This document shows, one piece after another, positions 11,978 to 49,768 of a stretch of 56,670 nt of DNA. Within the stretch, counting starts at the first letter, position 1. The number at the start of each line of letters is the position of its first letter. The notes under the pieces are model-generated. The model saw nothing but the letters and a program-made list of their open reading frames with translations, had not been told where the DNA came from and made no database searches. The position numbers and the translations under genes are program-made. The stretch is taken from contig CAZKLT010000007.1 in NCBI GenBank assembly GCA_964553825.1, positions 1 to 56,670 on the forward strand. The letters run 5' to 3'. This DNA is from an uncultured Gammaproteobacteria bacterium. Lineage in GTDB: Bacteria; Patescibacteriota; Microgenomatia; UBA10105; UBA927.

Positions 11978-14900
11978 TTACGCCGTGTGGAGCTCTATTT
12001 TGGTGATGTCAGGCTGCCCATTGTTATCAACAGGGATAGAAAGAATTGCTTCACTGGTACGACGATCCACATATGTTTCACCCGCGTTTATATTGATGCT
12101 ATCGGGGTTTACCTGCCGCCTGGCGGGCTGCTTCGTACGCTTCTCAAAGACCGCGAGAAAGTCCCGATTACTGGAGAGCGCCCGTGCAAATGACCGCCAG
12201 TCTGGATCGCCCGGATCAATCGGCGCATCGGTCTTTATGATGAAGGGTTTTGCAAATGTTTCCCCGCTGACAAACTGCGGTTCACGAACGAAATGAAATT
12301 TGTATGTACGCTTCTCGGGCGGGAACCGGAAATTTTCCAGTGTTCCACCGACGGCAATTTGGAGCCAGCTTTCAAGGTCAAGTGAAGAGGGGAGTCGCGC
12401 CGGAACGCCGTCATCGCTGAAAGATCCGTTGGGTGCCGGCTGGGAGTATAACCGGTCCGATCCCAGGTCGACGAGGTTTTTGCCGGGACGAAGGCGCCGC
12501 CAGAACGGGGACTTCGGCAGTAGTGTCTGCGCAGAAACTATCTTTCGCAGATTCCGGATCAGTGACCGGTCTGCCGGAATATCCGGTGCGCCATTCGCCT
12601 CTTGACGCGTTATGCGGATATCATTGGCGACGCGTTTGGCAAATTCCTCTGTCCGCGGCACGGTAAGGAATGCGGCGGCGGTATTTTCCGGGATAATCTC
12701 AAAGAATGATGCATCGATATTATCTGCCGACTGGAGGGGAATTTTCGCATTGGGACCGATGGAATAGATCTCCTCTCCGAAGACTTTCCGTGCGATCGTA
12801 CGAACTATTCCAACACGCGTGGTAGCGGAAATGAGTGTCGGAACCGGGAGTGTCGCTTCCCGGAAGGACTCAGCAAGCAGCTCACGTTTCGAGATGGGAA
12901 ACACAGTTTCTTCCCGGGCGCCGAATTGGGTAAACCCAACACGAAATGACCGCGTCGTTTGGGAAATAATCCGATACTGATCACCATCAAGGGATTCGAG
13001 TATTGTTCCCGAAACAAGGTACTCCCGGCGCAGCTGGCCCTTGAGATCATATAAATCCTCGCGTTCAACGGTCCGCTTGCTAAAAAGCTCGCTACTGAGG
13101 GTTTCCGGCGTCCGGTCCTGATAGCCGGTTGCAAAAATAACGCGGTCGACAATCCGTTGTTCCATCTCGCCGTTGGTTTTCCGCCATCGGACGACAATCT
13201 TCCCGTCATTTCTTTGGAGTATGTCGTATGCGCGGCCACCGTTCGGGTCGATGCGGGAGTAGGAATAATTCGACCTGGGCATGTCCAGGGAGATATCCAC
13301 ATATCGGGGACGAAGTTTTTTTAGGAGTTCTTTCTTATCCGTTGCTTCCTGTCCTACCCATGTAATATTCTGCGGCCAGTCCAGTTGAATGACGGAGTTG
13401 CCGCCGCCGGGTCCATACCCCAGAAGATCCTCAAGTACGGTGTATGCGCTGTCGCCGTCGCCAATGACCATGACGCTCCCCGTAAAATCCTTCCGGGGAA
13501 ATTCATTGGCGCCGTCGCCCGTCGTCTTCCAATACCAGGAAGAATGAAGCACTTTCGGCGTTATCTTTCGTGCCAAGTCCTGTTTCGCCTGGGCGATAAT
13601 CCTGGCGACGTCGGGATTGTCCGTGTCGATACCCGGGAACGCCTCTTCACCCAATCCGCCTGCATTAATAAGGCGATTGCAGTACATGGTGATCGTCCGG
13701 TCGCCGCGACCGTCCTGAATCCTGATGCCGACGCGGTATTTTGCGCCATACTGCTGTGCCTGTTGGGGGGAGAGTTTTTCAACCGTTTGCCCCGTCGCAT
13801 GTAATAGCGTCGGGGCGGAAAGCATGTCGTTGGTACGGATTGCGCGCGCCAGAACACGATTGTTGGTATAGGTGTCGGTGGTAATGTCCGGCACCTGAAG
13901 TACCGCATGCTCGCCAAGGGAGTTGAGATTTCCTTTTTGTCCCGGGATGGCCCGTTCGGCTGGATCCTGCGGGCGCGTACGGCTATTGGCGTTAAAGACC
14001 TCCCGTTCGCCGTCTGCAAACTGCCCGCCCAGCCGTTCACCTGCGTCGACCAGCAGAATTTCTGCATCCGGCATGAAATGCCGTAACTCACTGGCAAATA
14101 CGCTGCCATGCAGACCGGCGCCCAGCACCATGGTATCCACGACGTTATATCGGGTGCTTGCTAAGAGCTCTATACGTTGGCTTTCGCGCTCCGCTGCCCG
14201 ATCGATAGCCTTGTCCAACAGCCATCCAAAACGTTCAGACCGGTATATAGCCGCAAATAGCGGGCTTAAGATGCGATAGCTGTCATTTTTTAAGCGCGTG
14301 TTTCTTTGGAGTTCTTTTCGGCGGCTTAAAAACTTTTCGGTTTGATCTTTGAATTGCCGTATGTGTGATATGACGGTAAAGAACTCCTTGAGGAAGGGGA
14401 TACGCATTCTTGCGGTACGATACTCATGGCTTTTGATATCCCGGGGAGGATCTGCGGGATCATACTCTGCGCGGGGAGAGCGATTCGGTTTCTGAGCGAT
14501 ATCCAGCGTTGCTTTGGCAGCATCGACAATCCTCTCTGTCGTGCGCCTATCGTTGCGCTGGACGGTATCGGTGAGTTCTTTGAGCCGTCGGCCTTCCGGC
14601 GTGTCGGTATCAGGAAGACCGGTAACCGCTTGAACGACGCGGCGAATTGCCCGGACGCGATCCTGATCGAAATTCCCCCGCAATACCGCAGGATAACTCA
14701 CATTATATGGTCCGTATAGGAGTTGCGACTGGAAGCGTGGAAGTGCGCCACGCACGCCATCCTGAGGTGCGTTATTGAGCTTCAGAAGTGACTCCGTGGC
14801 GATCAGCGCTGCCAGTGTTTTTTCTTTGGCATTGAGCGGCCGCCGGACGATGGTATCCAGTCCGATTGCGGAAAAGACCCCGATATCATCGCTCCGTTCG

Positions 14901-15109
14901 GACTGCGCCGTGGACTGGATGATCGTTGCAAGGCCATCTCCCAAATCAGCCAGTGATGTAGCCAGCCGCTGCCGGTCGAAGCCGGATGCCACAATAGCTC
15001 CTTGTCCATCAAGCGGCGGCACGATAAGTTCAGTTAATTTGCGGAAATCCTCGTCCTTCGTCCATGCAGGCAACTCCCGCTGGGCTTCTTCTCTCACTCC
15101 TTCGGGCAT
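11978..15109 (-). CDS. Large FAD/NAD(P)-binding oxidoreductase-like protein (1043 aa)
   Basis: VLGAGLHG...LLVDAGERLGG (FAD), VIGDGDSA (NAD(P)), VIFATGY, IYSIG motifs. Confidence 0.7.
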   Translation of the reverse strand: MPEGVREEAQRELPAWTKDEDFRKLTELIVPPLDGQGAIVASGFDRQRLATSLADLGDGLATIIQSTAQSERSDDIGVFSAIGLDTIVRRPLNAKEKTLAALIATESLLKLNNAPQDGVRGALPRFQSQLLYGPYNVSYPAVLRGNFDQDRVRAIRRVVQAVTGLPDTDTPEGRRLKELTDTVQRNDRRTTERIVDAAKATLDIAQKPNRSPRAEYDPADPPRDIKSHEYRTARMRIPFLKEFFTVISHIRQFKDQTEKFLSRRKELQRNTRLKNDSYRILSPLFAAIYRSERFGWLLDKAIDRAAERESQRIELLASTRYNVVDTMVLGAGLHGSVFASELRHFMPDAEILLVDAGERLGGQFADGEREVFNANSRTRPQDPAERAIPGQKGNLNSLGEHAVLQVPDITTDTYTNNRVLARAIRTNDMLSAPTLLHATGQTVEKLSPQQAQQYGAKYRVGIRIQDGRGDRTITMYCNRLINAGGLGEEAFPGIDTDNPDVARIIAQAKQDLARKITPKVLHSSWYWKTTGDGANEFPRKDFTGSVMVIGDGDSAYTVLEDLLGYGPGGGNSVIQLDWPQNITWVGQEATDKKELLKKLRPRYVDISLDMPRSNYSYSRIDPNGGRAYDILQRNDGKIVVRWRKTNGEMEQRIVDRVIFATGYQDRTPETLSSELFSKRTVEREDLYDLKGQLRREYLVSGTILESLDGDQYRIISQTTRSFRVGFTQFGAREETVFPISKRELLAESFREATLPVPTLISATTRVGIVRTIARKVFGEEIYSIGPNAKIPLQSADNIDASFFEIIPENTAAAFLTVPRTEEFAKRVANDIRITRQEANGAPDIPADRSLIRNLRKIVSAQTLLPKSPFWRRLRPGKNLVDLGSDRLYSQPAPNGSFSDDGVPARLPSSLDLESWLQIAVGGTLENFRFPPEKRTYKFHFVREPQFVSGETFAKPFIIKTDAPIDPGDPDWRSFARALSSNRDFLAVFEKRTKQPARRQVNPDSININAGETYVDRRTSEAILSIPVDNNGQPDITKIELHTA

Positions 15110-15151
15110 ATACCATCAGTATCGCGATTTTTTTGTGGCCTGGCAAGAGTC

Positions 15152-16261
15152 TTAGCGGGGATCGGGAGGGAGTATGGCAAGGTCGCCTGTAAACATCTGC
15201 GAAAGATTCTGCCTTCGCTTCATCCGTGCGCGAAATTTGCGTTTCTTTCTTTTCTGGAGCGCTTCGGCGGTTTCCGAGACGCTGATGACGAGTCGTTGTA
15301 CCGGCGGGGCGCCTCCGGAGGCCGGAATCGAAATGACGCTATACAGGAGACGGGTAAATCGCGCTTTCTTTCCGGATGAAGCGGATTTTTTGTTTTCGTA
15401 CAGCGCATCAAAGGCTTCTTCAAGGTCTGCCGGAGTAACCTCCGGTGGCAGATCGTACCGGATCCAGTGGTCCGTGCGCGCTACATCCGGATCGTCCTGG
15501 GCAATCTCCTGCCAGAGTGCATCCGGCGCCAGCAGGTTGCGCAGGACGGCTTGTTTCATGGGGTGTTCTGCGTTCCGCGCCGTCTGCCCGTCCGGGTCAT
15601 GGACGATGAGGCCAAATTGGCAGGGAGAATCGGACAGCAGTGGGATGATGTCCGAGATTGCGCGGAACTGGTCTGTGTAGAGCGTAACGCGGAGGGTAAG
15701 CCGTTTATTGAGCGGAAGATGATACTCGCTGAAAGCAGTTGCGGGGTTCAGTACGACGCCCTGGTCTGCCAGAGTCGGCTCCGTATAGGCAAGGCTCCCA
15801 AATGCGTTGCTTGTTTTTTTCAGTGTTTTTATGATTGCCCGGGTGATGGCTTCGGGAGATGCGGGATCTTTTGTCCCTTTCGTATTGAAGGCAAACTGCA
15901 GGTCAGCATATCCGGCAGTAATGCCGCGCGAAAATCCGTTTATCTCGCGGCGGTACCGGGTGTTTGCCGGGGCAAACGGGGAGCGGTTTGTGGGGTGCAG
16001 GATATCGTACCGGGCAATGGCATCTGCGTTGATATATGCAATGGTAAAGGCTACTGAGGCAATTTTGTATGCATTTGTCTGTGTCTCTGCTGAATAGGCC
16101 GTACCTTCCCGCAGGAACGCAGCGAAGCGGGTTTTGTATTCATGCATGGCATCGCCGTACAAAAATGCGCTTGCCCATCGGGCCTCGGCATGAGCAAGCG
16201 CGTCGGCGAAAGCGGCGCCTTTTCCCCTCGTCTGGTAGTCCGGTGTTTCGTGTAGTGCCAT
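15152..16261 (-). CDS. Hypothetical protein (369 aa)
   Basis: Long ORF; TATAAT 8 nt upstream of ATG. Confidence 0.7.
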   Translation of the reverse strand: MALHETPDYQTRGKGAAFADALAHAEARWASAFLYGDAMHEYKTRFAAFLREGTAYSAETQTNAYKIASVAFTIAYINADAIARYDILHPTNRSPFAPANTRYRREINGFSRGITAGYADLQFAFNTKGTKDPASPEAITRAIIKTLKKTSNAFGSLAYTEPTLADQGVVLNPATAFSEYHLPLNKRLTLRVTLYTDQFRAISDIIPLLSDSPCQFGLIVHDPDGQTARNAEHPMKQAVLRNLLAPDALWQEIAQDDPDVARTDHWIRYDLPPEVTPADLEEAFDALYENKKSASSGKKARFTRLLYSVISIPASGGAPPVQRLVISVSETAEALQKRKKRKFRARMKRRQNLSQMFTGDLAILPPDPR

Positions 16262-19180: not shown

Positions 19181-19603
19181 ATGCGTGAACAAACTGTTGT
19201 TTTAGTAAAACCGGATGGATATGCGAAAAAAGTAGTCGGGCAGGTGATAGACCGTTTTGAGCGGGCAGGGCTTGACCTGGTAGCGCTGAAGATGGTGCGG
19301 CTTACCGAAGAAATTCTCAGGACATGGTATGCCCATCATGCCGATAAACCCTTTTTCCCTTCACTCGTTGCCGATATGATGGCGACTCCTGTGGTGGCGA
19401 TGGTGGTGGCAGGGGAGGGAGCAATCCAGAAAGTATTTGATATCTGCGGTCCCACAGATCCTGCAGAAGCTCAGCCTGGCACGATCCGTCGTGATTTCGG
19501 TGAATCCAAGCCCAAGAATGTCGTCCACAGAAGCGATTCAAAAGAGGCCGCAGCGAAAGAAATAGGGCTACTTTTCAGGCCGGAAGAGCTATTTCAAAGC
19601 TAA
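19181..19603 (+). CDS. ndk: Nucleoside diphosphate kinase
   Basis: VLVKPDG, HHADKPFF, GPTDPAEAQPGTIRRDFG, NVVHRSDS; GGAGG SD. Confidence 0.97.
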   Translation: MREQTVVLVKPDGYAKKVVGQVIDRFERAGLDLVALKMVRLTEEILRTWYAHHADKPFFPSLVADMMATPVVAMVVAGEGAIQKVFDICGPTDPAEAQPGTIRRDFGESKPKNVVHRSDSKEAAAKEIGLLFRPEELFQS

Positions 19604-19634: not shown

Positions 19635-20270
19635 CTAGAGAAACAAGGTATCCTCAATTTTCCCATTGTCCGTCTGCTTGAGAATTTGGGCATATGCGAT
19701 CTGATCGATCGTGAATTGTTTGTAGTCCCATGCGGTGGCAAACGACGACAATATTGCCTTCGTGTTGCAGAGTGGACGCACTTCAATATCCACATAGTCA
19801 CGATATGATGACCATTTCCACTCTTCGGGCGACTGAGTTATGTGGGCGATGACGGGATTAAGATGTATATATCGAGAAACATGAAGGAGGAGTTCATCTG
19901 ATTCGATCAATTTTGCCTTGAATGTATATTCAAATAATCTCCCGCTTCTATGAAGGTTAAGATTGAAAAATTTCGTGTAGCTCGTGTTGAGTTTATGCAT
20001 GAATTCCGTAATACCATTGTCTGCCTTTTGTTTTATGAGGAAATGATAATGGTTCGGCATAAGGCAGTAGCATAAAACATCTATCTTCGTGTTCAAAGCT
20101 AAGCTTTGATTGTAGGAAAGGCGCGGTGTGGCGCTGCCTGTTTTGAGGATTGACCGGATTGTCGCAATGAAGCGAAGATAATGTCCGTAGCGTTGAAAAA
20201 TTATTCGTTTGTCAACGCCGCGGTTATAGATGTGATAATAGCCGTTGGTAAAAAACGGGGCGGGCCTCAT
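19635..20270 (-). mobile_element. REP-associated tyrosine transposase (RAYT / Y1 HUH, IS200-like fold), 211 aa
   Basis: YYHIYNRG, YCLMPNHYHFLI (HUH), SRYIHLNPV (Tyr), WKWSSY; flanked by REPs. Confidence 0.9.
20093..20109. repeat. REP palindrome inside the RAYT coding sequence
   Basis: TCAAAGCTAAGCTTTGA, read as QSLAL in the protein. Confidence 0.85.
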
Positions 20271-20300
20271 CCAGGAAGATTGTATCGCGGCGCTAGAAAA

Positions 20301-20321
20301 ATTCAAAGCTTAGCTTTGAAT
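20301..20321. repeat. REP palindrome upstream of RAYT
   Basis: ATTCAAAGCTTAGCTTTGAAT. Confidence 0.85.
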
Positions 20322-20335
20322 GTGGGCTTCAAGGG

Positions 20336-22759
20336 TCATACCTGCTCCGAGACCTTGCGACCCTGAATTTCATACAGGTAGTCGGCGATATGGTAGGCAA
20401 GTTCTCTATAGAGGGCGAGCGCATCGGGCGGTGTCGATTCCTGATGTTGAATCATCAGTTGCAGATGGTCTACCAGCCGTTGCGTTGCGGTACGCGCCTC
20501 TGTCCAATTTTTGTGGGGGAGCCGCAGGCTGTTTTCCATAACTTCCTGTGCAAATTCGCTCATGCCCATGGCGGACAGCGCATTCCTGTGGTGCATGACA
20601 TGCATCAGGTTGCGTTGTAACAGAACACCCATCGCCGTTTCCATGGGGAGTTTCTCCCCATTTTGGTATGGACGCGTATCGATAGGCAGGCCCGTCGATG
20701 TCAAAAAGGTATCGCTGATCGTCGTCGGGGCGTGGTCAATGACGGACATCAGGGCGTAGTAACGGGAGAAAATCGACGCAATTTTGGATACCGGTTTGGA
20801 ATCAAGAATTGTTTGAGCATCACCATTGGCAGAAAACCGTTCTTCGATGGCGGACTGAAGCGGAAATACTTCCTTGTGGGCGATAAACGTCCAACCGTTT
20901 TCCGCGAAAAATCTGCCGATCAGTTTGCGCAGTTTCATTCGGGCACGTTTCAGGTGCCATTCATGGGCCGGGTCCCGAACCGACAATACGCGTTCGAGAA
21001 GCGGGTGATACACCTCGATGGACGCGTTTTGCCTGAGTGCACGCTGGACTTCCATCAGATACGGGGTAGGCTTGCGTAGCATCCGTTGCACGGAAGATCC
21101 CGATAACCAGTCGGCAATAATCGTTTTATACAAATCGACATCTTTGGTTTGCAGCGTATGAATGATTTTCTGATGTTGCTCAAAAAGATAATGATCTTCT
21201 CCGGGTAGGGAGAATACCGGAATATCAAGGTCAAACAGCGCAACAAACTGTTTTTCCGGATTGAGAATAATATCAGACTGGGCGATGACGGCGGCGATAC
21301 GCCGCTGGGCGATAATTTTCTGGAGCACTGCGCGGTTGCCATTGACCAGGTCGCGCATGTCAGGGGCGCGATTGAGATCCCGGACACACTGGGCGACATA
21401 GAGCGGATCCAGATGCATCTGCGCCATATGGGCGGCAAGTTCATACAGATGCCGCGCGTTGGGTGTGAAGAATTTGTTGTGGGCGAGTTTCACCACGCCC
21501 GCGAGTTCTCCGGCGCGCATGGTGCTGTAGGGGATCAATTTGTTGGCACCCAGTTTCAGCAGGAATCCGCCCCAACCTCCGAGAAGCGGCACGGCACTGC
21601 GATCCTGTTTGGCGCCGCTGGTAACCGGCGTATTAAGGAGGTAAAAGATATCCAGCCGTTCATCAAGGGCGTAATCTTCGGCCAAAAGTTCCGGAAGGAA
21701 CGCGTCTTCGTCCAGGGCGATGGCAAAGGCAATTTCGCCACCCATAGAGTGGCCGTTAAGCATGAGATGCTGGATGTTCTGGTGGTCTTTGTCCTGTCGC
21801 GCGCGTTTGCGGTTCGTGATATAGGAAAGCAGTTCTCGGGTGGCATGCTTCACCTGGTTCTTCCCGTGTTCCTCCAGGTGATAGCCGTAGACGCCCCACA
21901 TGCGGTCGTTGACGCGGGTTTTTTCGCTGCCCATGATCGACAGAATCGCCTTCACCCGGTGGGAACTGGCGTCTTCATCTGTCCATTTGATCATGGTGTT
22001 GCGGGCCGTTTGTTCGATGGCAATCGCGCTGCCGCCGAACCCATGCCACTCAATATCCAGTCCGTTTGCCTGACGCATCTTCCGGTCGAGGATTTCCTGA
22101 GCTTCTTTGGCACGCATGGCTTGATCAAGGCGGTCAAATGAAGCGACGCCGTATTGGGGGAAAAGCACTTCGGGCGCATTCTTGCGGACGTTTGCTTCTG
22201 TGAGAAATTCGGTAACGCCTCTGAGACGGGCATCCAGATCTGTGGCTTCATTGCGGGTGAGGGAGAGGAGTATTTTCCCGGTCGTACCGCGTGCGCCGAA
22301 TGCATCGATATCGTCTTTGGTCTGATGGGCCATGCCGATGTCGACCGCGAGGATGGATGTCGTCATGTCAAGCTGCGCGTCGTAGGCTTCAAAACCCGAA
22401 TGTGATTGATTCCGGAGCATATCCTGGATCCACAGATGCCGCCGGCCGAATGCTTCTTTCATGGCTTCAGCGCTGTAATCCATGGGGGCAGACTCCCGGT
22501 CAAACCGGCGTGTGGTCGCGTCCATGGTTGCTGGTCGTTCTTCAGCTGCCATAATCTCAAATACCCCGCTTCGTGCGGGGGCCTCTGCTTTTGTATTGTA
22601 AATCCTCAGGCCCCAAATCGTTTTGGGAACTGGGGATTCAAAGGGAGACAGCAGGCGTTGTAAGAGAAATGATTCATCGTGAGATGAGATTTCTACAAAC
22701 AAATCCTGTTTGTCACGCGTCCAATGAATCTTCCATCTTACTCCCGGGGGAGCCGCCAC
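20336..22759 (-). CDS. Large protein with alpha/beta-hydrolase domain (807 aa)
   Basis: MLNGHSMGG nucleophile elbow (S338), AQSDIIL (D496), GEDHYLF (H523). Confidence 0.7.
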   Translation of the reverse strand: MAAPPGVRWKIHWTRDKQDLFVEISSHDESFLLQRLLSPFESPVPKTIWGLRIYNTKAEAPARSGVFEIMAAEERPATMDATTRRFDRESAPMDYSAEAMKEAFGRRHLWIQDMLRNQSHSGFEAYDAQLDMTTSILAVDIGMAHQTKDDIDAFGARGTTGKILLSLTRNEATDLDARLRGVTEFLTEANVRKNAPEVLFPQYGVASFDRLDQAMRAKEAQEILDRKMRQANGLDIEWHGFGGSAIAIEQTARNTMIKWTDEDASSHRVKAILSIMGSEKTRVNDRMWGVYGYHLEEHGKNQVKHATRELLSYITNRKRARQDKDHQNIQHLMLNGHSMGGEIAFAIALDEDAFLPELLAEDYALDERLDIFYLLNTPVTSGAKQDRSAVPLLGGWGGFLLKLGANKLIPYSTMRAGELAGVVKLAHNKFFTPNARHLYELAAHMAQMHLDPLYVAQCVRDLNRAPDMRDLVNGNRAVLQKIIAQRRIAAVIAQSDIILNPEKQFVALFDLDIPVFSLPGEDHYLFEQHQKIIHTLQTKDVDLYKTIIADWLSGSSVQRMLRKPTPYLMEVQRALRQNASIEVYHPLLERVLSVRDPAHEWHLKRARMKLRKLIGRFFAENGWTFIAHKEVFPLQSAIEERFSANGDAQTILDSKPVSKIASIFSRYYALMSVIDHAPTTISDTFLTSTGLPIDTRPYQNGEKLPMETAMGVLLQRNLMHVMHHRNALSAMGMSEFAQEVMENSLRLPHKNWTEARTATQRLVDHLQLMIQHQESTPPDALALYRELAYHIADYLYEIQGRKVSEQV

Positions 22760-22879
22760 ATACTCACCGTTTGGCTACAGGCCAAAAACGTGTATACGTC
22801 ATGAGTAATGACGACTCCCTTTGGGAGGAGAAGAGGGAACACCTTCAGTCGGGGGCCGCTACCCAACGTCGGGTGAATC

Positions 22880-23626
22880 CTACGGGATAGGTGTTTCGGT
22901 TGGGATGAGTCGAGGCAAGACCTGTATATGGACATACTTGTCCACACCGATGATCTCACCGTACTCGATCATGGGTTCGCCGTTGAAGCTTGTGAACGCG
23001 GAGCGCTGTGCAACAATGGCGAGTTCTTTCTTGATGACCTGAATTTTGAATTTCCAGACCGTTCCCATGATCCAGCCGTGGTCGTCCTCACCGCTTATCG
23101 TGCTCAATTCGTATTGGGCAATACCAGTGGCATTGCGAACTTCAATGGCGCAGTAGTTAGCGACAACTTCTGCGGTATTCGCATCCAGGAATCGGACGCG
23201 AATCTTGAGCATTGAGGGTTTGCGCGGGCAGTTGGCAGAAGTAAACGCCAGGAGCCGCGAGGTTTCCTCAGCAGACAGAGGAGAGGTCATGATTTGAGTT
23301 GCCGTGGGTTCCACTGTGTTCGTGGAGCTTGCGGCCATCGTTGCGGTCGGCGTTTGCGGCACGATCGTAACGGTTGCGTTATTCAGCGTCGGAACTGGTG
23401 TCCGGGTCGCTGTCACCTGCGGGCTGGTTGAAGCTACAGGCGATTCCGTCGCTGTCGTGCTGGGGGTCGCGGTGTCGGGGGCAAGAAGCTCATGAATGAG
23501 CGACAAATTGCCGCCGATGGTGCCGGTAACCACCAGGCAGAGCAGGATGCCGATGATCCATGGCCACACTTTGCGGCCGTGGAATAAACGGTGACGGATG
23601 GGGATGGTTTTTTGGGACAGATTCAT
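22880..23626 (-). CDS. Membrane-anchored protein with Thr/Pro-rich linker (248 aa)
   Basis: AGGAG SD before MNLSQK; TM WPWIIGILLCLVVTG; TATP repeats. Confidence 0.8.
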   Translation of the reverse strand: MNLSQKTIPIRHRLFHGRKVWPWIIGILLCLVVTGTIGGNLSLIHELLAPDTATPSTTATESPVASTSPQVTATRTPVPTLNNATVTIVPQTPTATMAASSTNTVEPTATQIMTSPLSAEETSRLLAFTSANCPRKPSMLKIRVRFLDANTAEVVANYCAIEVRNATGIAQYELSTISGEDDHGWIMGTVWKFKIQVIKKELAIVAQRSAFTSFNGEPMIEYGEIIGVDKYVHIQVLPRLIPTETPIP

Positions 23627-23842
23627 TAGGTTGCTCCTCTCCGTGGGGTTACCCCCTTGGAAAAATAAAATGGGTTTGAGTACAAAACGTGCACACAAGC
23701 AGGAATAGGATATTCCAGCCTCGGTGCACGCTTCGACTCAGCCAGATGGAGCTTTGCGTGATTGTCTCCCTTTGTTAAAGAGCATGCTCGTCTCCGGTAG
23801 GCCGGGCCGCAAATCGGGCACGGTACCAGAAACAAGGATCCC

Positions 23843-23871
23843 AGTATACTATAAGCCTATAGTTTTGTCAA
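23843..23871 (-). promoter_or_regulatory. Sigma70 promoter
   Basis: TTGACA-17-TATACT with CTATAG in the spacer. Confidence 0.7.
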
Positions 23872-23917
23872 GTCGGCCTACTATAGTACGAAGGACGTGG
23901 GAGCGTTGTGTGACAAA

Positions 23918-26503
23918 TTACACGGGAGCCTGTTGTTGGAGCGTTTCGCTTATTTCATCTGCTGCGGCAAGTGCTACATCAAGAAACCGTTGTTCCATCT
24001 CAAGCGCGCCTGCAACACAAAGAATTTTGATGCCTTCAAAGAGTTGACGATTGCGCAGAAGTGCTTCTGTGAGAATAAGGGCAGAGGATATGCCTGTGGT
24101 GCTTGTGGGGCGATAGAGATCACGCCGGGCGACGATGCAGGCATCAAGCGCCTCCTGGGCTATCAGACGGAGACGGGCTTCCTCGGTTTGACTGCCTTGT
24201 CCCAACTGACGAGCAACGGCTTCTATAGCTGGGTTCATGACATTGGGGTCATAGATGCGTAAATTGTCGATAAATTCAGGTGTTGCTTTGTCCCGCATAT
24301 CAACAGACATGCTTGTGCCGTCTTTCCGCTTGAGCAGATGGGTGGCGATGCCGCCGGCGAAGGTGATTTCGCGATGCCAGGTTTCGGCAGAGGTAAATCC
24401 TGCCATAACGGCAACTTGTTTTTCTTCCGGTTTTCCTGACTGTTTTTCGACCGTTTCCGTGACCTGCGATGACCCCAAATGTGAATTCTGGATGCGCACG
24501 AGTGAGTTTTCAAATAATACCTCGTCGTTGGCTTCCATGAACATTTTCCGGGCCATGGCGGCGGTATTTTCCGCGATACCGCGGAATTTTTGCGTGGACT
24601 CCTGCAGTACGGTAAGTACGGTAAAATCAAGCAACCAATCCAGTCCATATTCTGTGGTCATGAGGCGAAATGCATCCTGCAAGGAAGCAGTCAGGTCATC
24701 GGGAGATACGTAGCCCTTCTCATTTGGTCTCCCAAAGACCCGGGCATTGGCATTTGCCGATTTGCGAAATGCATACGTGTTCATAGCGTGAACGATGGGG
24801 TCGGCCATGTTGGGCATGAGCCCCAGTTCAAGGCGGCCGCGCGTATCGCGGGGCAGCATACACACAGCCATGGGGCCGAAAAATTGGCGGGTTACAAGAT
24901 CGATGAATTTATTGCTGTTCATCTTCACTGCTACCAGGCGATTGAGCAGTGCTTTTTCGGCTTTCTTGTGTAAGGGATCACGGGCGAGGATGCTTCTGAC
25001 TTTGGCTTCCGCTTTCGTATACCACCTTCCGTTTATTGCGTCGGCAGCCCGGTCCAGTCGGGCAACCTGTTTGGGTGATAGCTCCGTATGCACCGTCAGA
25101 TCGGAAATGCCCAGGGCGTAGACAAGTTCATTGAGCGCTTTATTCTCCAGATAGTCAAGCTTCTGCGGTTCGCTTTGAAGATTGCTCTGGATCTTGTTTT
25201 TCAGCAGCCAAAGCCTGAACGGGGAGGGTATTTCATTAAATTGAACGGGGGGAAACCACTCGATTTCCAGCTCACGCGGAGGCGGCGTTTTGGTAGCGCC
25301 GACGGCGCGGGCGAGAGCAAGCGTCATTGCCTTGCCGGGAACGCCGTCCACTGACGCATGGCTCCAGTACAGCTCCACGCGGTTTTTGTCCAGGTTGTAG
25401 TGCATGTGGACGATGGACTGGCCATCTCGTGCGTGCTCAAAGAGTGCTGAATCAGGGGTGGCGGTACGGCCGACCGACATACTCATGAGCGGAGCGTCCT
25501 CTTTCAGGAATTTTCGCTTGAGCTTGGGCTTCGTCGGGACGGTGTTCCATGTATACTCACCCCCAAACGCATTGTCTTCATGAGCCTGTATGAGCCCATT
25601 GAAGATTTCCGGCGGCAGCGCTTCCAGCTTGTCTAACGGGATATCGGCATACTGCAGGCTGTTGGTCTGAGGGTTTTCGCGGAAAATGCGCACCGGCATA
25701 GTGCGAAACGTGCCGAATTCACGATAATGCGTTTTGCCGTCTATGGTGCGGGTAAGTACGTCAATGGGAGCCGCTTGTTCAGCATACGAATGCCGGATTG
25801 TCCGCAGATGTTTCTGATCCCAGAGTTCGCCGTTTTGCGCTTGCCCAAGGTGTGTCCGCGCATCATCCTGGACGCTCTGGCGTCCGGTGGTGTCGGGTGG
25901 GGCAGGATGGTAAGGTATCTGCTCAGTGGCATGTTCCAGCGCGTTCTGGGCGAAGATAAGCGACCCCTGTGCCGCCAGTTGCTGAAGCTCCAGTGTGCCG
26001 CCGGTTTTCGTGGGGTGGTCGGGTACCAGCAGTGTGCGCCATGTGCCACCGCGACCGGCGAGCGTTTCCAGAATTCTCGTCGATTTTTCATCTTTTGCCT
26101 CTTTGCTTTGGCGTACGATGGAGCCGTTCCAGGAATACCGGGGATCGGCTTCATCGCCCAGGACATATTTCTCTATAACGACGATTGCTTCGCGGATGAA
26201 ATCATCTGAAATACCGGATTCATCGATATGGTTGATTTTGCAATATTGGGAGAACAAAATGCTGGCAACGTGGTTCTGGCGGTCTTCGTTTAACACCAGA
26301 TCATCGTTGAGGAGCACCATGCTCTGCTTGAGCATGGTGATATTGGAGAATGTCCCATCCGTATCGCCCTGCTGCAGTTCATCAGCGTGACGCATAAGCC
26401 AGCGGATGGCTGCCCGGTCCGTGGAAAGATCTTCGTAATACGGGTCTGTTTCCGGCGGCGCACTGGCCGTCGCTTCTATGATGACATCTTGTTCTGGGGG
26501 CAT
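23918..26503 (-). CDS. Large hypothetical protein with HxxxDG acyltransferase-like motif (861 aa)
   Basis: VELYWSHASVDGVPG (H382...D386G). Confidence 0.6.
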   Translation of the reverse strand: MPPEQDVIIEATASAPPETDPYYEDLSTDRAAIRWLMRHADELQQGDTDGTFSNITMLKQSMVLLNDDLVLNEDRQNHVASILFSQYCKINHIDESGISDDFIREAIVVIEKYVLGDEADPRYSWNGSIVRQSKEAKDEKSTRILETLAGRGGTWRTLLVPDHPTKTGGTLELQQLAAQGSLIFAQNALEHATEQIPYHPAPPDTTGRQSVQDDARTHLGQAQNGELWDQKHLRTIRHSYAEQAAPIDVLTRTIDGKTHYREFGTFRTMPVRIFRENPQTNSLQYADIPLDKLEALPPEIFNGLIQAHEDNAFGGEYTWNTVPTKPKLKRKFLKEDAPLMSMSVGRTATPDSALFEHARDGQSIVHMHYNLDKNRVELYWSHASVDGVPGKAMTLALARAVGATKTPPPRELEIEWFPPVQFNEIPSPFRLWLLKNKIQSNLQSEPQKLDYLENKALNELVYALGISDLTVHTELSPKQVARLDRAADAINGRWYTKAEAKVRSILARDPLHKKAEKALLNRLVAVKMNSNKFIDLVTRQFFGPMAVCMLPRDTRGRLELGLMPNMADPIVHAMNTYAFRKSANANARVFGRPNEKGYVSPDDLTASLQDAFRLMTTEYGLDWLLDFTVLTVLQESTQKFRGIAENTAAMARKMFMEANDEVLFENSLVRIQNSHLGSSQVTETVEKQSGKPEEKQVAVMAGFTSAETWHREITFAGGIATHLLKRKDGTSMSVDMRDKATPEFIDNLRIYDPNVMNPAIEAVARQLGQGSQTEEARLRLIAQEALDACIVARRDLYRPTSTTGISSALILTEALLRNRQLFEGIKILCVAGALEMEQRFLDVALAAADEISETLQQQAPV

Positions 26504-26553: not shown

Positions 26554-29187
26554 CTATGCGTCATCCGCGGAAAGAGCCGCATCTTCCTCGGTCATGTTCC
26601 GCAACCAGTAATGCACTGCGAGGCGCAACCGTTTCCACCAGACGAGATTGAATTCCCTCTGCCGGTTTCGGCGGTCGTAGTATGCGTGCATGACATCGCC
26701 ATAGGTATCCTGCATGTCAAACAGGACCCGGATAAGCGGATATCGTCCGGGAGCGTGGTCAAACAGACGCTCCAGATGGAAGCGGTCATCGTCGATTTTT
26801 TTCTTCACGAGATCCTCGATGCTGGGGAAGTGCTGTATTTCCACCTGGAACATCGCTTCCGTATCATCATGCATTTCCATGACGTACTTGATCCACTCCC
26901 ATTTGGCGTCGGAGCTGGCGCTGCCTTTTTGCTGGTCTTCGATATACAGGAGATCATCCATCGTTGCTGATACCCGTCCTTTGTACAGGCGGAAATTGGT
27001 TTCATGCGGTGCGTTGTCCGCGTCCACCTGCATCATGATGGCATTGAGGACAAGTTGGGACGCCCATCGTTGCCACAGTCGCACAATTTCATTGACGGCA
27101 TAGGGAGGAGTAGAAGGATGGCGCTCAAGAAGTTCCTGTTCAAATTGGTGAACATCCAGCCCCATCATGAAGCCGAAAATATCGCTCATGTCCTCGTTGG
27201 GGTCCTCAAGGCCGCCGCGTTCAAGATCTTTGCGGTAGGACGAGTATTCGTCCTTTACCCGGACGGAAAAGGCAAGCGGGATGGCAAACGTTGAAAAATT
27301 TATGCCATGCGCAGTGGTATCCCGAATGGTGATGAGATTCTTGAACATGTTTATTTTCCCCACTGGGATCCGGTGATAATCAAACGTTCCTGCGGACGTT
27401 TTCAGCGTGCCGATGCGGGGACCAAGGATCGTATCCATCGCGCTTCGCAGCGGGCGGATATGGGTATTTGCCTTTGTGTTGACCTGCACGTCTACACGGT
27501 CTATACGGATCATCTCAAGCATCTTGCGCATGGCGGCGTTTCGTTCGGATATCGATATTTCTTCTCCGGAGTACTGATTCATGCCAAACATCCGCAGGAC
27601 AAGCTCGCCGATTTCCTGGGTTGTGGAGCCCAACGAGTCGTGCCGCATCGAGGTGAGAATCTCGGGATCGACTTTCCGTGATAACGGCATAAACTGCTGT
27701 TTGAGGAAATTTTCTACCCGTTCTGATAATTTTCCCAGTTTTCCCGGGTCGCCAATTCTGTGGACACCTGTTTCAGCGGCCGGATTGCAGAACAGGTGTT
27801 TTAACTGAGCGGAATTTTGTCTGTACAGACTGGGAGCAGTGCGTTCGCTTAAGCGAAACGTACGGAGGCGGTCCGTAATTTTTGCGTACCATCCCTCGTG
27901 CCGCGGGTTGACCCCAAATACCCGACAGACCGTATCCACGATATGTTTGAGCTCTGCACTGTGGCTGATCAATTCATAATCATGTTTGCCCCACCCTGGT
28001 TTTCTGGCCATCATGTTCGCCAAAAGAAGGGGAAACTGTGGACCTGTGTCTTTGTAGTATTCTACGGTAATATCTTCAGAAACCCACTTTGCGGCCAGAG
28101 AGATGTCTTGGATAAGCTTCATCCGCGCCTTGAGCCGGTGTTCTGAGACGCCTTTTTGTGAGAGTCTATGGAATATGCCTGGATCGACATATAAAATCGG
28201 GTGTTTCGTTTTGTCGGGATAGGAATGTTCTATGTCTTTCAACACCACACGGGCCCGGGCAAGCTGTTCGATGGCTTCATCTTTCGTCGTCGGCGCGGGA
28301 AGGCTTGCAAAACGGGCGATGTGTGATTTTCGCTGATCTTTGAGTTGGTTGTCCGGTACGCGCGGAAGATACGATATCACCCGTTTTAGCGTTTGTGCTT
28401 CATAGATGTATGCCTCTTTCTCTATCGCTTGCCGAAAGATATTGGCTTCTTCTGGTAGTCCTTCCACGCGGGCTGCACGGCGGCGCTCCGACTGAACAGA
28501 TAAGCTGTCGACAAGGGAGAATGCCTTTCCCGTTTCCGTCTCGATTGACTCCTGACTGAGTAATCGCGAAACGTGCGATGGTTTGAGCTGAAGGACGCTT
28601 TGCAGCTTGTCCTGCGGGTCGTAAAATTGGACCCGATCGTGCGGTGCTGCCCCGGCAGTAACGAGAAATGTGGTGTTCTTCAGCCTTCCCGGTTTGCGTT
28701 TGCCTTTGGCGTTAGGAACGCGGGGATGATCGAAGCTATACGTATAGGAAATTCCTTCAACTACGCGTGGCTGATGGGCAACGAGATGTACCTCTTCAAA
28801 TGCTTCTGCACGCGCAGCACGAATGATGTCTTTTGTGCTGATTGGGTTGGTGGGGTCATGTTTTCTTCCTCCACCGCCGACGAGAATGACTTGATTGGGG
28901 TTGACGACATTCCGGCCGCTTCCTTTTACCTCCCAGATCGTTGATGTAAGCTCGGGAAGCGGTGAGGATGCCTCCTGAAGCACGATCTGTTCCAGTTTGG
29001 CCCGGCTTAATTCGGGCTGTGTAGCAAGCAGCTGCTCCAATTCCGGCGTTGGGGGGAGCATCTGAGATGCGATGTCGGTGGGATCCATACGAAGAAGAAC
29101 CAGGCGGACCGTGTCCTGGTGGTATTCGTGTTCGCGGCGCTCGTTTCGAGGGTGCCGCTCAAAGAGAAATCGTTGTATTTCCGTCAT
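26554..29187 (-). CDS. Nudix-like + RelA/SpoT-like nucleotidyltransferase fusion (877 aa)
   Basis: LVGGGG...AARAEAFEEVHL (res 104-135); RVKDEYSSYRK (643), DIFG (669), VEIQ (783). Confidence 0.6.
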   Translation of the reverse strand: MTEIQRFLFERHPRNERREHEYHQDTVRLVLLRMDPTDIASQMLPPTPELEQLLATQPELSRAKLEQIVLQEASSPLPELTSTIWEVKGSGRNVVNPNQVILVGGGGRKHDPTNPISTKDIIRAARAEAFEEVHLVAHQPRVVEGISYTYSFDHPRVPNAKGKRKPGRLKNTTFLVTAGAAPHDRVQFYDPQDKLQSVLQLKPSHVSRLLSQESIETETGKAFSLVDSLSVQSERRRAARVEGLPEEANIFRQAIEKEAYIYEAQTLKRVISYLPRVPDNQLKDQRKSHIARFASLPAPTTKDEAIEQLARARVVLKDIEHSYPDKTKHPILYVDPGIFHRLSQKGVSEHRLKARMKLIQDISLAAKWVSEDITVEYYKDTGPQFPLLLANMMARKPGWGKHDYELISHSAELKHIVDTVCRVFGVNPRHEGWYAKITDRLRTFRLSERTAPSLYRQNSAQLKHLFCNPAAETGVHRIGDPGKLGKLSERVENFLKQQFMPLSRKVDPEILTSMRHDSLGSTTQEIGELVLRMFGMNQYSGEEISISERNAAMRKMLEMIRIDRVDVQVNTKANTHIRPLRSAMDTILGPRIGTLKTSAGTFDYHRIPVGKINMFKNLITIRDTTAHGINFSTFAIPLAFSVRVKDEYSSYRKDLERGGLEDPNEDMSDIFGFMMGLDVHQFEQELLERHPSTPPYAVNEIVRLWQRWASQLVLNAIMMQVDADNAPHETNFRLYKGRVSATMDDLLYIEDQQKGSASSDAKWEWIKYVMEMHDDTEAMFQVEIQHFPSIEDLVKKKIDDDRFHLERLFDHAPGRYPLIRVLFDMQDTYGDVMHAYYDRRNRQREFNLVWWKRLRLAVHYWLRNMTEEDAALSADDA

Positions 29188-29225
29188 AAAAATAAAAAAT
29201 CCCCCGGTCTGGTGGGGGATTTGGT
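29188..29225 (-). terminator. Leader terminator directly before the Nudix-RelA start codon
   Basis: AAATCCCCC-ACCAGACC-GGGGGATTT then TTTATTTTT then ATG. Confidence 0.75.
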
Positions 29226-29247: not shown

Positions 29248-29328
29248 TTAGACCACATCCCCGCCGCCGACATCCGTAAGGAATCGGAGAGACGTATGGA
29301 CAGTAATCGGTAAACGGGCTTCCGTCAT
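29248..29328 (-). CDS. Putative leader peptide MTEARLPITVHTSLRFLTDVGGGDVV (26 aa)
   Basis: ATG 9 nt after TATAAT; the 3' end is complementary to the terminator 5' arm. Confidence 0.45.
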   Translation of the reverse strand: MTEARLPITVHTSLRFLTDVGGGDVV

Positions 29329-29337: not shown

Positions 29338-29366
29338 ATTATACGACCGGTATGGCTTTTTGGCAA
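29338..29366 (-). promoter_or_regulatory. Sigma70 promoter
   Basis: TTGCCA-17-TATAAT. Confidence 0.75.
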
Positions 29367-33096: not shown

Positions 33097-33750
33097 TTAG
33101 AGGATAATCTTCAGCTGGCGCAGAACAGGGAGCACGACCTCAAACGGGAGGCCGATGACGTTGGTGTAGCTTCCGTCGATCTTCGTGACCAGATCCCACG
33201 GCGCTTCGTTGAGCGCGTATCCGCCGGCAAACCGGGTAAAGTCGAAACGGGTGATATAGCTTTCAATTTCCGCGGTGCTCATCTTGCGCAGCGTTACTTT
33301 CGTTGTGATTGTTTTTTCCCAGGTTTTCTTGATCTTTTCGTTTTGCACCAGAACGATATGGACTGCCGTAGTGAAGACATGGGTTTTGCCCATGAGTGCC
33401 TTCAGCATCTCGCGGGTGTTCTCGCGGTCAACCGACTTGCCGTAGACTTTCGCGCCCAGAATCGCCATAGAATCAGCGGCGATAATAAGGCTTTCCCGTT
33501 CCTCCGGGATGTTGTATACGCGGGGATGATTGGCAACCTCAAGCGCCTTGGCTGCTGCCCGTTTCTTAATGGTTATCTCCGGTTTTTTGTCGACGATGGT
33601 TTCTTCATCAACGCGGGCCACAGATACGCGGAAACGAACGCCCAATTTCTCCAACAGCATGCGCCTGCCGATAGACTGGGAAGCGAGAATAACGTCCGGT
33701 TTCGGTGGTTCGGGCGGGGGAGCATTTTTAGAGGCAAATGAGAGCTTCAT
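33097..33750 (-). CDS. maf: Maf family nucleoside triphosphate pyrophosphatase
   Basis: VILASQSIGRRMLL, IAADS, YGKS, LMGKTHVFTT, IDGSYTNVIGLP. Confidence 0.92.
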   Translation of the reverse strand: MKLSFASKNAPPPEPPKPDVILASQSIGRRMLLEKLGVRFRVSVARVDEETIVDKKPEITIKKRAAAKALEVANHPRVYNIPEERESLIIAADSMAILGAKVYGKSVDRENTREMLKALMGKTHVFTTAVHIVLVQNEKIKKTWEKTITTKVTLRKMSTAEIESYITRFDFTRFAGGYALNEAPWDLVTKIDGSYTNVIGLPFEVVLPVLRQLKIIL

Positions 33751-35469: not shown

Positions 35470-35545
35470 TGGTCGGAATGGCGGGACTTGAACCCACGAC
35501 CTCGCGGTCCCGAACCGCGCGCTCTACCAACTGAGCTACATTCCG
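35470..35545 (-). tRNA. tRNA-Pro(CGG), CCA encoded
   Basis: CGGAATGTAGCTCAGTTGGTAGAGCGCGCGGTTCGGGACCGCGAGGTCGTGGGTTCAAGTCCCGCCATTCCGACCA cloverleaf. Confidence 0.97.
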
Positions 35546-35641: not shown

Positions 35642-35713
35642 GCCCCTATAGCTCAACGGATAGAGCAGACCCGTCCTAAGGGTAAGATGAGGGTTCAATT
35701 CCTTCTAGGGGTG
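35642..35713 (+). tRNA. tRNA-Arg(CCT), CCA not encoded
   Basis: GCCCCTA/TAGGGGT acceptor stem, GCTC/GAGC D-stem, loop GTCCTAA, GGTTCAATT T-loop. Confidence 0.9.
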
Positions 35714-37894: not shown

Positions 37895-38929
37895 ATGTTC
37901 GGGCAGTTTTCAAAACGTATCGGTATTGACTTAGGCACGGCGAATTCCCTGGTGTGGCTGGCAGGCGAGGGCGTGGTGATGAATGAGCCGACCGTCGTTG
38001 CCGTAACCGTGGATGATAATCGGGTCGTCGCCGTGGGGAATGAAGCCAAAGAAATGCTGGGCCGTACACCCGGGAACATCATGGCAACCCGGCCAATGCG
38101 AGACGGGGTTATCGCCGATTATCGCATCACAGAGGCCCTTTTGTCGTATTTCATCGACCGGGTGGCGGGCCGAAACCGCTTCTTTAAACCCGAAGTCATG
38201 ATTTGTGTGCCCAGCGGTGTGACACAAGTGGAGCGCCGTGCCGTGCTTGATGCAACGCTTTCTGCGGGAGCACGGGTTGCGTACCTTATCGAAGAGCCCC
38301 TCGCAGCAGCCATAGGCGCAAAAATTCCGATTGCCCAAGCCTCGGGCCACATGATCGTCGACATCGGCGGCGGATCCACTGAAGCGGCCGTTGTATCCTT
38401 GGGCGGCGTCGTGGTCCACAAGAGCGCCCGTGTGGCCGGAAACAAGATCGACGAAGCCATCGCCCTATTCATTAAGAAAAAATACAATCTCATAATTGGC
38501 GAACGGATGGCTGAGACGATCAAAATAACGATCGGTGACGCGATGGGTGATGATCCGCAGACCCGCATAGAAGGCAGCGCAGTCAGCATGGAAGTGCGTG
38601 GGCGGGACGCGGTAAGCGGGCTGCCGCGCATGATTGAGCTTACCCGCGCGGAGATGACCGAGGCTATCGCGCCGGTCCTCCATCAGATAATTTCCGCCGT
38701 GAAAGCCGTCTTGGAAGATACGCCTCCGGAGCTTGCTGCCGATATAATCGATAAAGGCATTGTTATGGCCGGCGGTACCAGCCAGCTGACGAATCTCGAC
38801 CGTCTTATGACCAAGGAAACGGGTGTCGTGTGTCATGTGGCCGACGAACCGCTGCTGTGCGTCGTGCGCGGGACAGGGGTTGCCATCGAAAATATTGAGC
38901 TGTACAAGCGCAGCATTAATCGGAAATAG
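37895..38929 (+). CDS. mreB: Rod shape-determining actin-like protein MreB/Mbl
   Basis: IGIDLGTANS, RPMRDGVIAD, IEEPLAAAIG, VDIGGGSTE, MAGGTSQL. Confidence 0.97.
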   Translation: MFGQFSKRIGIDLGTANSLVWLAGEGVVMNEPTVVAVTVDDNRVVAVGNEAKEMLGRTPGNIMATRPMRDGVIADYRITEALLSYFIDRVAGRNRFFKPEVMICVPSGVTQVERRAVLDATLSAGARVAYLIEEPLAAAIGAKIPIAQASGHMIVDIGGGSTEAAVVSLGGVVVHKSARVAGNKIDEAIALFIKKKYNLIIGERMAETIKITIGDAMGDDPQTRIEGSAVSMEVRGRDAVSGLPRMIELTRAEMTEAIAPVLHQIISAVKAVLEDTPPELAADIIDKGIVMAGGTSQLTNLDRLMTKETGVVCHVADEPLLCVVRGTGVAIENIELYKRSINRK

Positions 38930-43711: not shown

Positions 43712-43755
43712 TGTTGCCCTGATTTTCACTTCCTCTTGTGTGATACGATGAGGAC

Positions 43756-44748: not shown

Positions 44749-44810
44749 CTGCATTGAAGCTAGAAAATAGCCTATAGCGTGCGTTTTGTGGTATAATAAT
44801 AGGTCAACCT

Positions 44811-48635: not shown

Positions 48636-48697
48636 TCATGGCCGTTTCCCTCCGGTGATACCTTTCCTGCCCATCTGACATCTGATACTCTAGAAGA

Positions 48698-49765: not shown

Positions 49766-49768
49766 AAT

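Follow-up and report, generated by a model that had tools for sequence, protein, structure and literature searches.

A rare, unannotated fusion of Nudix and RelA/SpoT-like domains preceded by a conserved leader

Introduction

RelA/SpoT homologue (RSH) enzymes and the alarmones that they handle control growth, stress survival, antibiotic tolerance, inter-bacterial killing and phage defence. The long bifunctional members combine an HD hydrolase with a synthetase and regulatory domains. As seen in the structures of Rel and RelQ, the basic residues of the first synthetase motif (Syn1) bind the phosphates of ATP, and the aspartate of Syn2 and the glutamate of Syn4 are responsible for Mg2+ binding and catalysis. 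Alarmones are also processed by Nudix enzymes, NahA of Bacillus subtilis converting (p)ppGpp to pGpp, and in the NrtR regulators a Nudix-like effector domain acts as a ligand sensor. To our knowledge, each divergent RSH clade discovered up to now has turned out to have a product or target not seen before, (p)ppApp and the 3′ end of tRNA being examples. Here we describe an 877-residue protein in which a Nudix-fold domain is fused to an RSH synthetase-like domain. It is encoded on the minus strand of a 56,670-nucleotide stretch of bacterial DNA (contig CAZKLT010000007.1, positions 1 to 56,670), referred to below as the window.

In the 2011 survey of the RSH superfamily, Nudix is mentioned only as a DUF429 domain partner and as the separate Thermus enzyme Ndx8. 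The T. thermophilus Ndx8 is cited in PMC3153485. No description of a Nudix–RSH fusion was found in full-text literature searches. The fusion is a rare, unannotated domain architecture, and it is accompanied by a conserved regulatory leader.

The protein and its family

The gene is an uninterrupted open reading frame (ORF) of 877 codons starting with ATG. Seven full-length homologues with 39–72% identity match the protein in length and at both ends and, because they share these starts and ends, the ORF can be taken as a real gene. Its parts, with the evidence on which each was placed, are as follows.

26554..29187, minus strand: coding sequence of the 877-residue Nudix/helical/RSH-like protein (P0001); ORF and full-length homologues
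28453..29130, minus strand: N-terminal Nudix-fold domain, approximately residues 20–245; AlphaFold2 (AF2) model, Foldseek, family profile against the PDB, Pfam matches in relatives
28783..28878, minus strand: variant Nudix box, residues 104–135; alignment columns, with the family consensus aligned to the MutT box
27421..28452, minus strand: central all-helical region, residues 246–589; AF2 model
26638..27420, minus strand: C-terminal RSH synthetase-like domain, residues 590–850; AF2 model, Foldseek, PDB profile matches, hhalign
27172..27261, minus strand: Syn1–Syn2-like motifs R643xK645xxxS649xxR652K653xxxR657 ... D669xxG672; residue-by-residue alignment to RelA/Rel
26827..26925, minus strand: G755-S-A-S-S759 loop, W763xW765xK767 strand and Syn4-like E783xQ785; conservation, weak E-x-Q alignment, modelled strand order

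When 1.84 billion representative proteins were searched with a profile, 66 clusters were obtained, nearly all of 700–950 residues; the family is real but rare. A word-index search, repeated with a 72-sequence profile, recovered the same eight proteins as before and none further, and a search of metagenome contigs with the family alignment added one 6-kb locus. Standard annotation misses the family: the window protein matches nothing in Pfam or NCBIfam, or by phmmer in the PDB, when searched as a single sequence, apart from one spurious hit to ribosomal protein L20, and its relatives are named ‘hypothetical protein’ or ‘MutT (NUDIX family)’ in the source records. When the protein was shuffled 20,000 times, the ordered chain of RSH motifs arose twice and the Nudix-like pattern 86 times, and the two never occurred together.

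No signal peptide is present. An acidic C-terminal tail is found in the four closest homologues and is not kept in those with less than 50% identity. The L20 hit falls on a basic C-terminal helix (YDRRNRQREFNLVWWKRLRLAV, residues 832–858, window 26614..26694), where a weak match to bL20 recurs with E-values of 0.03–0.3; an identity as L20 was rejected and the match is probably compositional, though a helix as basic as this might bind RNA.

The C-terminal domain resembles RSH synthetases

The C-terminal domain is a divergent RSH synthetase-like fold. When a profile of residues 588–850, built from 37 members, was compared with the PDB, eight matches were obtained, six of them to Rel or RelA GTP pyrophosphokinases (E = 0.005–0.8), and all of these six pair RxKxxxSxxRK...DxfG with Syn1 and Syn2. 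By hhalign the domain was compared with 11 genuine RSH synthetase domains taken from E. coli and plasmid records. In local mode the Syn1–Syn2 half aligned with a probability of 95.7% (E = 9.5e-9) and the whole domain with 78–84%; the global mode, which gave 14%, misaligned the sequences owing to a helix insertion, so that the local mode was preferred.

The AF2 model of the domain, made from the 37-sequence alignment, has a predicted local distance difference test score (pLDDT) of 89.3 and a predicted TM-score of 0.85. It contains the five-stranded mixed sheet with flanking helices that characterises the RSH synthetase fold, with the strands in the RSH order. In a Foldseek search of the PDB the first 15 matches are B. 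subtilis SAS1/RelQ and Staphylococcus aureus Rel, at probabilities of up to 0.99, and the viral matches with the best probability are named ‘GTP pyrophosphokinase YjbM’ and ‘RelA/SpoT’. The nucleotidyltransferase toxins MenT3 and TglT come lower in the list with probabilities of 0.11 or less, and no tRNA-modifying toxic small alarmone synthetase (toxSAS) is among the top 50 matches. The Pfam family RelA_SpoT (PF04607) is not matched by the window protein and is matched by one of its 65 relatives, with an E-value of 0.009. Since all these matches are weak in absolute terms, the domain is best regarded as a distant relative lying outside the Pfam RelA_SpoT boundary.

In the Syn1 region Arg643, Lys645, Ser649 and Lys653 align with the RxKxxxSxxxK motif of RelA and Rel, and Lys645 is found in 66 of 66 members, Lys653 in 65 and Arg652 in 61. 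The Syn2 motif DxxGxR is represented by Asp669 (65/65) and Gly672 (41/65); the arginine two positions after the glycine is absent, being Met674 in the window protein, and many relatives have an arginine directly after the glycine. Syn3 (GYxSxH) is not found. At this point the family has [W/F/Y]763-x-W765-x-K767, with Lys767 kept in all 65 members, behind a conserved G755-S-x-A-S759 loop. We infer from the modelled strand order that this WxWxK strand may be the positional counterpart of Syn3, with the same i, i+2, i+4 periodicity. Of Syn4 (ExQxRT), Glu783 (65/65) and Gln785 (55/65) are present and align weakly to EIQIRT (E = 0.026), and the Arg-Thr pair is replaced by Phe-Pro. Syn5 (HxxxYK) is also missing, the following helix carrying K796-x-x-D799-D800-x-x-Y/F803-x-x-x-R807 with Lys796 in 67 of 68 members, Asp800 in 61 of 65 and Arg807 in 64 of 65.

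The RSH-like set of Lys645, Lys653, Asp669, Lys767, Glu783 and Lys796 is complete in 63 of 65 members. Such conservation argues for an active enzyme. The residues that contact the ATP phosphates, Mg2+ and the catalytic centre in RSH enzymes are kept and the acceptor-side motifs are not. Because Syn3, Syn5 and the Syn2 arginine are not RSH-like, the acceptor is probably unusual.

A Nudix fold and a variant box at the N terminus

Although the window protein has no match to Pfam NUDIX (PF00293) even at E ≤ 1, 24 of 65 family members do match it, the best with an E-value of 3.1e-12. Against the PDB the 72-member family profile finds dozens of Nudix enzymes besides MutT (E = 2.6e-6), and the family consensus ‘lpGGk...aaRElleEthl’ aligns to the Nudix box of MutT. 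The AF2 model of the full-length protein, with a pLDDT of 73, has the alpha/beta/alpha Nudix fold as judged by Foldseek, with probabilities of 0.98–1.0 to many Nudix hydrolases, among them RppH and other RNA-directed enzymes. The superposition on 3DUP has a root-mean-square deviation (rmsd) of 4.5 Å over 191 columns; the E-values of the Nudix matches are only 0.02–0.04 and the local pLDDT is mixed.

In the window protein the box reads GGGG-x3-D111-x16-E128-x2-E131-E132-x-H134-L135. Gly104, Gly105, the three glutamates and Leu135 are kept. Compared with the consensus GX5EX7REUXEEXGU, the first glutamate is replaced by Asp111, the arginine by Ala127 and the glycine by His134, and the loop is longer by roughly 5–9 residues. 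All of the quartet R-E..E/D-E is present in 37 of 65 members, and both main metal-binding glutamates, Glu128 and Glu132, are kept in 48 of 65; within the clade of the window protein these two are invariant. Outside the box, Lys88, Tyr150, Phe152, Asp193 and Asp227 are conserved better than the box itself.

Taken together, we are highly confident in the identities of the two domains, Nudix and RSH-like. A first-pass annotation, made from the sequence of the window alone, had proposed a Nudix hydrolase fused to a divergent RelA/SpoT-like synthetase domain, and this proposal holds. Both assignments agree with the profile matches described above (MutT and Pfam NUDIX at one end, Rel/RelA and the 95.7% hhalign match at the other), and the predicted structures keep a Nudix fold (Foldseek 0.99–1.0) and an RSH-type fold whose top 15 matches are SAS1 and Rel. 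The motifs that it named, G104–G107...A125-R-A-E128-A-F-E131-E132-V-H134-L135, R643-V-K645-D-E-Y-S649-S-Y-R652-K653, D669-I-F-G672 and V782-E783-I-Q785, lie exactly where it placed them, its numbering of Asp669 and Glu783 included. They are also conserved among homologues, with Lys645, Asp669, Lys767 and Glu783 invariant in all 65–66 members that cover them, and its reservation that the Syn2 arginine, two positions after the glycine, and the YxxxH of Syn3 are lacking was correct.

Between the two domains, residues 246–589 have no match in the PDB or Pfam. A 428-column alignment to Rel (6S2T) raised the question of whether this 345-residue region is a decayed HD domain. This has no support, since hhalign against the N-terminal halves of Rel, RelA and SpoT gave a probability of 0.5% and thus no relation to HD.

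A conserved leader upstream of the gene

Three elements lie upstream of the start codon.

29338..29366, minus strand: strong sigma-70-like promoter TTGCCA-17-TATAAT, matching at 11/12 positions, upstream of the leader
29248..29328, minus strand: 26-codon upstream ORF (MTEARLPITVHTSLRFLTDVGGGDVV and stop), with a 25/26-codon ORF in the same place at all six orthologous loci
29188..29222, minus strand: GC-rich hairpin and U-run resembling an intrinsic terminator and ending at the ATG (z = −3.1)

Counterparts of the leader lie at approximately 9745–9870 in locus L001, approximately 9800–9960 in L004, 9760–9932 in L019, 6895–7075 in L022 and 1598–1770 in L023. An A-rich spacer of about 25 nucleotides separates the upstream ORF from the hairpin. 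The whole arrangement of promoter, 25/26-codon ORF, purine-rich spacer and hairpin with U-run is found at 6/6 orthologous loci, even where the proteins are only 30–43% identical. The −10 box is kept in L001, L002 and L004, with analogous promoters in L019, L022 and L023, and L001, L004, L019, L022 and L023 each have a corresponding hairpin and U-run; in L022, as in the window, the U-run abuts the start codon. There is no space for a second promoter or a Shine–Dalgarno sequence between the hairpin and the gene. Close relatives conserve the leader DNA more strongly than the gene itself, and in distant orthologues the sequence of the upstream peptide is poorly conserved.

Judged by its anatomy, the leader resembles an attenuator of the leader-peptide type. 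Its signal may be ribosome stalling, or nucleotide-dependent pausing of the polymerase in the A-rich spacer. No Rfam family matches the leader; the best score, 23.8 bits to the PyrG leader, is far below the gathering score of 65, so that a known RNA family was rejected. A hairpin conserved at the RNA level within the upstream ORF was rejected too: the three close sequences keep it, L019 does not, and there is almost no covariation.

Genomic neighbourhood

The window is part of a bacterial chromosome, with genes for MreB, a PEGA-domain protein, Maf, nucleoside diphosphate kinase (NDK), an M16 peptidase, two tRNAs, glycosyltransferases and a sortase. The Nudix–RSH gene is a single chromosomal gene in this housekeeping setting. 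Its place between Maf and a convergent NDK is held even by orthologues of only 30% identity, and in L022 and L023 the NDK gene immediately adjoins the Nudix–RSH gene. Maf belongs to a nucleotide pyrophosphatase family, and the flanking by Maf and NDK throughout the clade could be a coincidence or a functional link. In the window the genes concerned, together with the four co-oriented ORFs (19635..26503, minus strand) that separate the Nudix–RSH gene from NDK, are the following.

33097..33750, minus strand: Maf
23918..26503, minus strand: ORF of 861 residues
22880..23698, minus strand: ORF of 272 residues
20336..22759, minus strand: ORF of 807 residues
19635..20306, minus strand: IS200-like Y1 transposase gene
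19181..19603, plus strand: NDK

The first three ORFs of this block, counted from the Nudix–RSH gene, have no Pfam match. The block is shared by the close relatives L001–L004 but not by the P0008, P0010 and P0012 loci, and appears to be a lineage-specific insertion. The 861-residue ORF was considered as a paralogue or obligatory partner and rejected, as it shows no similarity to the 877-residue protein and is missing at the same three loci. More distant family members adjoin genes for ribosomal proteins, EF-P, pyruvate kinase, the pentose-phosphate pathway or miaA/folD. Neither the window nor any of nine related loci showed an antitoxin or immunity partner, a secretion system or defence genes. 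PADLOC gave no defence match for the protein and only a weak match to the Nudix-like model PDC-S07 in three distant relatives, on which ground membership of a defence system was rejected.

Several other features of the window may be recorded. At 11978..16261 on the minus strand a 1043-residue ORF, with a short match to the Rossmann family NAD_binding_8 (residues 328–369), accompanies a 369-residue ORF without domains; at the orthologous locus with 39% identity (L019/L020) ORFs comparable in size and order, of 365–371 and 1048 residues, lie directly downstream of the Nudix–RSH gene. A sortase-domain protein (2633..3430, minus strand) adjoins a DUF11-repeat protein (1321..1983, minus strand) and the two are possibly a sortase–substrate pair; the contig of P0012 (L023) also has a sortase gene. 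A run of glycosyltransferases (GT4, GT2 and a starch/glycogen-synthase-like GT5) at 42476..53077 on the plus strand surrounds a 1274-residue ORF (44811..48635) with no Pfam match. Two divergent tRNA genes (35473..35545, minus strand; 35642..35713, plus strand) are about 100 nucleotides apart. MreB (37895..38929, plus strand) is approximately 50% identical to gammaproteobacterial and 55% to Firmicutes MreB. As identity to gammaproteobacterial MreB is only about 50%, the label ‘uncultured Gammaproteobacteria’, also carried by the related metagenome-assembled genomes CAYUKU01 and CAYGFH01, is open to doubt, and the organism probably belongs to a deep-branching lineage.

Discussion

It would seem likely that the 877-residue protein is a cytoplasmic, three-part enzyme of nucleotide metabolism. 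In the mechanism that we propose, the C-terminal domain would bind ATP and move its beta,gamma-pyrophosphate onto the 3′-OH of an acceptor, giving a nucleotide resembling (p)ppNpp. Its acceptor pocket would have been rebuilt, with the GSxAS loop and WxWxK taking the place of GYxSxH, KKxDDxxY that of HxxxYK, and the Syn2 arginine gone, so that the acceptor, and hence the product, is probably something other or broader than canonical GDP/GTP. The Nudix domain would hydrolyse a diphosphate bond, either of this product or of a substrate. It might degrade the product, a make-and-break arrangement like that of HD in the long RSH enzymes, or trim it in the way that NahA of B. subtilis acts on (p)ppGpp; this coupled make/trim idea includes the further assumption that both domains act on the same molecule. 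In members with a decayed box the domain may do no more than bind a nucleotide and regulate. The 345-residue helical region would link or regulate the two domains, and the leader would gate transcription such that the gene is made only upon read-through of the terminator. For the pyrophosphokinase-plus-Nudix mechanism as a whole we estimate a probability of about 50%. Strict make-and-break, the function that the first-pass annotation had put forward, is doubtful and is weakened by the patchy conservation of the Nudix catalytic residues. We would put still less weight on the most far-reaching version, a so far unrecognised class of ‘long’ alarmone enzyme with Nudix, helical and RSH-like parts that, in a deep-branching, uncultured lineage, makes and processes a non-canonical pyrophosphorylated messenger by virtue of its rebuilt GSxAS/WxWxK acceptor site and is induced through a leader-peptide/terminator attenuator sensing translation or nucleotide supply; this would be an unlikely outcome.

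A number of observations weigh against the proposed mechanism. All the RSH matches, in sequence and in structure, are weak in absolute terms, and for the C-terminal model the Foldseek E-values are about 0.01, the TM-scores 0.3–0.4 and the rmsd about 14 Å. With hhalign the Syn3/Syn4 half alone reaches an E-value of 0.026 with only the E-x-Q segment aligned, and so is not independent proof. Of the five synthetase motifs of RSH enzymes, three do not have the RSH form, and pyrophosphate transfer is for this reason an extrapolation from Syn1, the Syn2 aspartate and the Syn4 glutamate. At the other end of the protein, the Nudix quartet is complete in just 37 of 65 members, compared with 63 of 65 for the synthetase-like set, the window copy has Ala127 at the position of the box arginine together with inserted loop residues, and AF2 performs poorly at the box itself, with pLDDT below 50 at residues 131–136. 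On account of this patchy quartet, the substitution and insertion, and the poor model, the Nudix domain may be non-catalytic in the window protein.

The last point leads to the alternative in which the Nudix domain has no catalytic role and senses a ligand, as the effector domain of NrtR does, and exerts allosteric control over a C-terminal pyrophosphokinase without any ‘break’ activity. The uneven conservation of the quartet, the missing arginine and expanded loop in the window copy, and the better conservation of Lys88, Tyr150, Phe152, Asp193 and Asp227 outside the box all fit a sensor. The main metal-binding glutamates are, however, both present in 48 of 65 members and invariant in the clade of the window protein, which also keeps Glu131, and a pure sensor seems to us unlikely. 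If the C-terminal domain is a nucleotidyltransferase-fold enzyme of different chemistry that only resembles RSH and carries out nucleotidyl transfer, AMPylation or a MenT-like extension of tRNA, the low TM-scores, the presence of MenT3 and TglT further down the list and the absence of Syn3, Syn5 and the Syn2 arginine would be explained, but the RSH-specific RxKxxxSxxxK helix is aligned at high probability, the single aspartate on strand 2 with a glutamate on strand 5 is the RSH pattern, the hG[GS]...DxD pattern of the polymerase-beta type is absent from the sequence and the probability of the MenT matches does not exceed 0.11; we consider such chemistry improbable.

Transfer of pyrophosphate to tRNA or another RNA, as by toxSAS enzymes, is only slightly less improbable. 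It would account for the replacement of Syn3, which is the nucleotide-acceptor motif, and for RppH and RNA-directed Nudix enzymes among the fold matches, and a terminator-gated leader would suit an enzyme that inhibits growth. Yet the structural matches are SAS1 and Rel with no tRNA-modifying toxSAS in the top 50, no antitoxin or immunity gene is adjacent at the loci examined, whose context is housekeeping, and PADLOC offers only the weak Nudix-like model in distant relatives. The same context bears on the suggestion in the first-pass annotation that the enzyme might act on a host. Several large neighbouring ORFs without known domains and the acidic tail of the four closest homologues could be read as signs of a secreted effector that manipulates the nucleotides of host or target cells, eukaryotic or bacterial, but there is no signal peptide, the tail is lost below 50% identity, no secretion-system genes lie in the window or the related loci, the position between Maf and NDK is conserved and vertically inherited, and the relatives come from environmental metagenomes, for example Everglades soil (L018). 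With housekeeping loci lacking secretion, toxin–antitoxin and defence genes, the suggestion has no support, and we regard an effector as very improbable. Because of this housekeeping context and the lack of partner genes and of a signal peptide, an endogenous physiological enzyme is favoured over a toxin or host effector.

If the pyrophosphokinase-plus-Nudix mechanism is correct, the family could make a new nucleotide messenger, since the ATP and catalytic half is intact in approximately 66 clusters, the acceptor half is replaced and a Nudix domain is fused to it. It could also show a second, independent coupling of synthesis and hydrolysis besides HD–SYN. The conserved leader, with its upstream ORF and terminator, provides a testable route to the inducing signal.

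Comparison with known systems

The nearest described folds are SAS1/RelQ (5DEC/5DED) and S. aureus Rel (7OIW), which share with the C-terminal domain the five strands and flanking helices in the same order, the Syn1 RxKxxxSxxxK, the Asp-x-x-Gly of Syn2 and the Glu-x-Gln of Syn4. The 877-residue family differs from them in replacing the Syn2 arginine, the Syn3 GYxSxH, the Arg-Thr of Syn4 and the Syn5 HxxxYK, and in falling below the Pfam threshold. The 877-residue protein also has an additional helix of about 30 residues between strands 2 and 3 and an N-terminal beta-hairpin, and its synthetase-like domain is fused to Nudix and helical domains. As Pfam fails for both families and three of the five motifs are not retained, the protein is placed at the level of the superfamily and not in RelA_SpoT.

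With the long RSH enzymes Rel and SpoT the protein has in common a hydrolase-type domain N-terminal to a synthetase-type domain, and the N-terminal regions of T. thermophilus, B. subtilis and M. tuberculosis Rel are among the Foldseek matches of the full-length model. The hydrolase is, however, Nudix instead of HD and is followed by the 345-residue helical spacer with no relation to HD. The earlier idea of a Nudix ‘in place of HD’ fits the order of the domains, and the central region is not related to HD in sequence (hhalign 0.5%). No match to the C-terminal regulatory region of Rel/RelA (TGS/ZFD/ACT) was found in Pfam or PDB searches with the 877-residue protein.

A precedent for a non-HD pyrophosphohydrolase alongside an alarmone synthetase is given by the alarmone Nudix enzymes NahA, Ndx8 and MutT/NudG and by relA-mazEF-mazG of E. 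coli, where mazG adjoins relA in the E. coli record. NahA, Ndx8 and MutT/NudG are separate proteins, whereas here the Nudix domain is fused and has an atypical box (Ala127, His134 and the loop insertion). Divergent RSH folds in which the ATP site is kept and the acceptor changed are known from toxic enzymes, namely the (p)ppApp synthetases Tas1 and Apk1, the tRNA pyrophosphokinases FaRel2 and CapRel, and the exported alarmone synthetases (PMC12691689). These enzymes occur in immunity, antitoxin, secretion or phage-defence contexts, unlike the 877-residue gene, which has none of these. In function the closest analogue of the protein would be a small alarmone synthetase to which a Nudix alarmone hydrolase is coupled, in a layout like that of the long RSH enzymes with Nudix at the place of HD.

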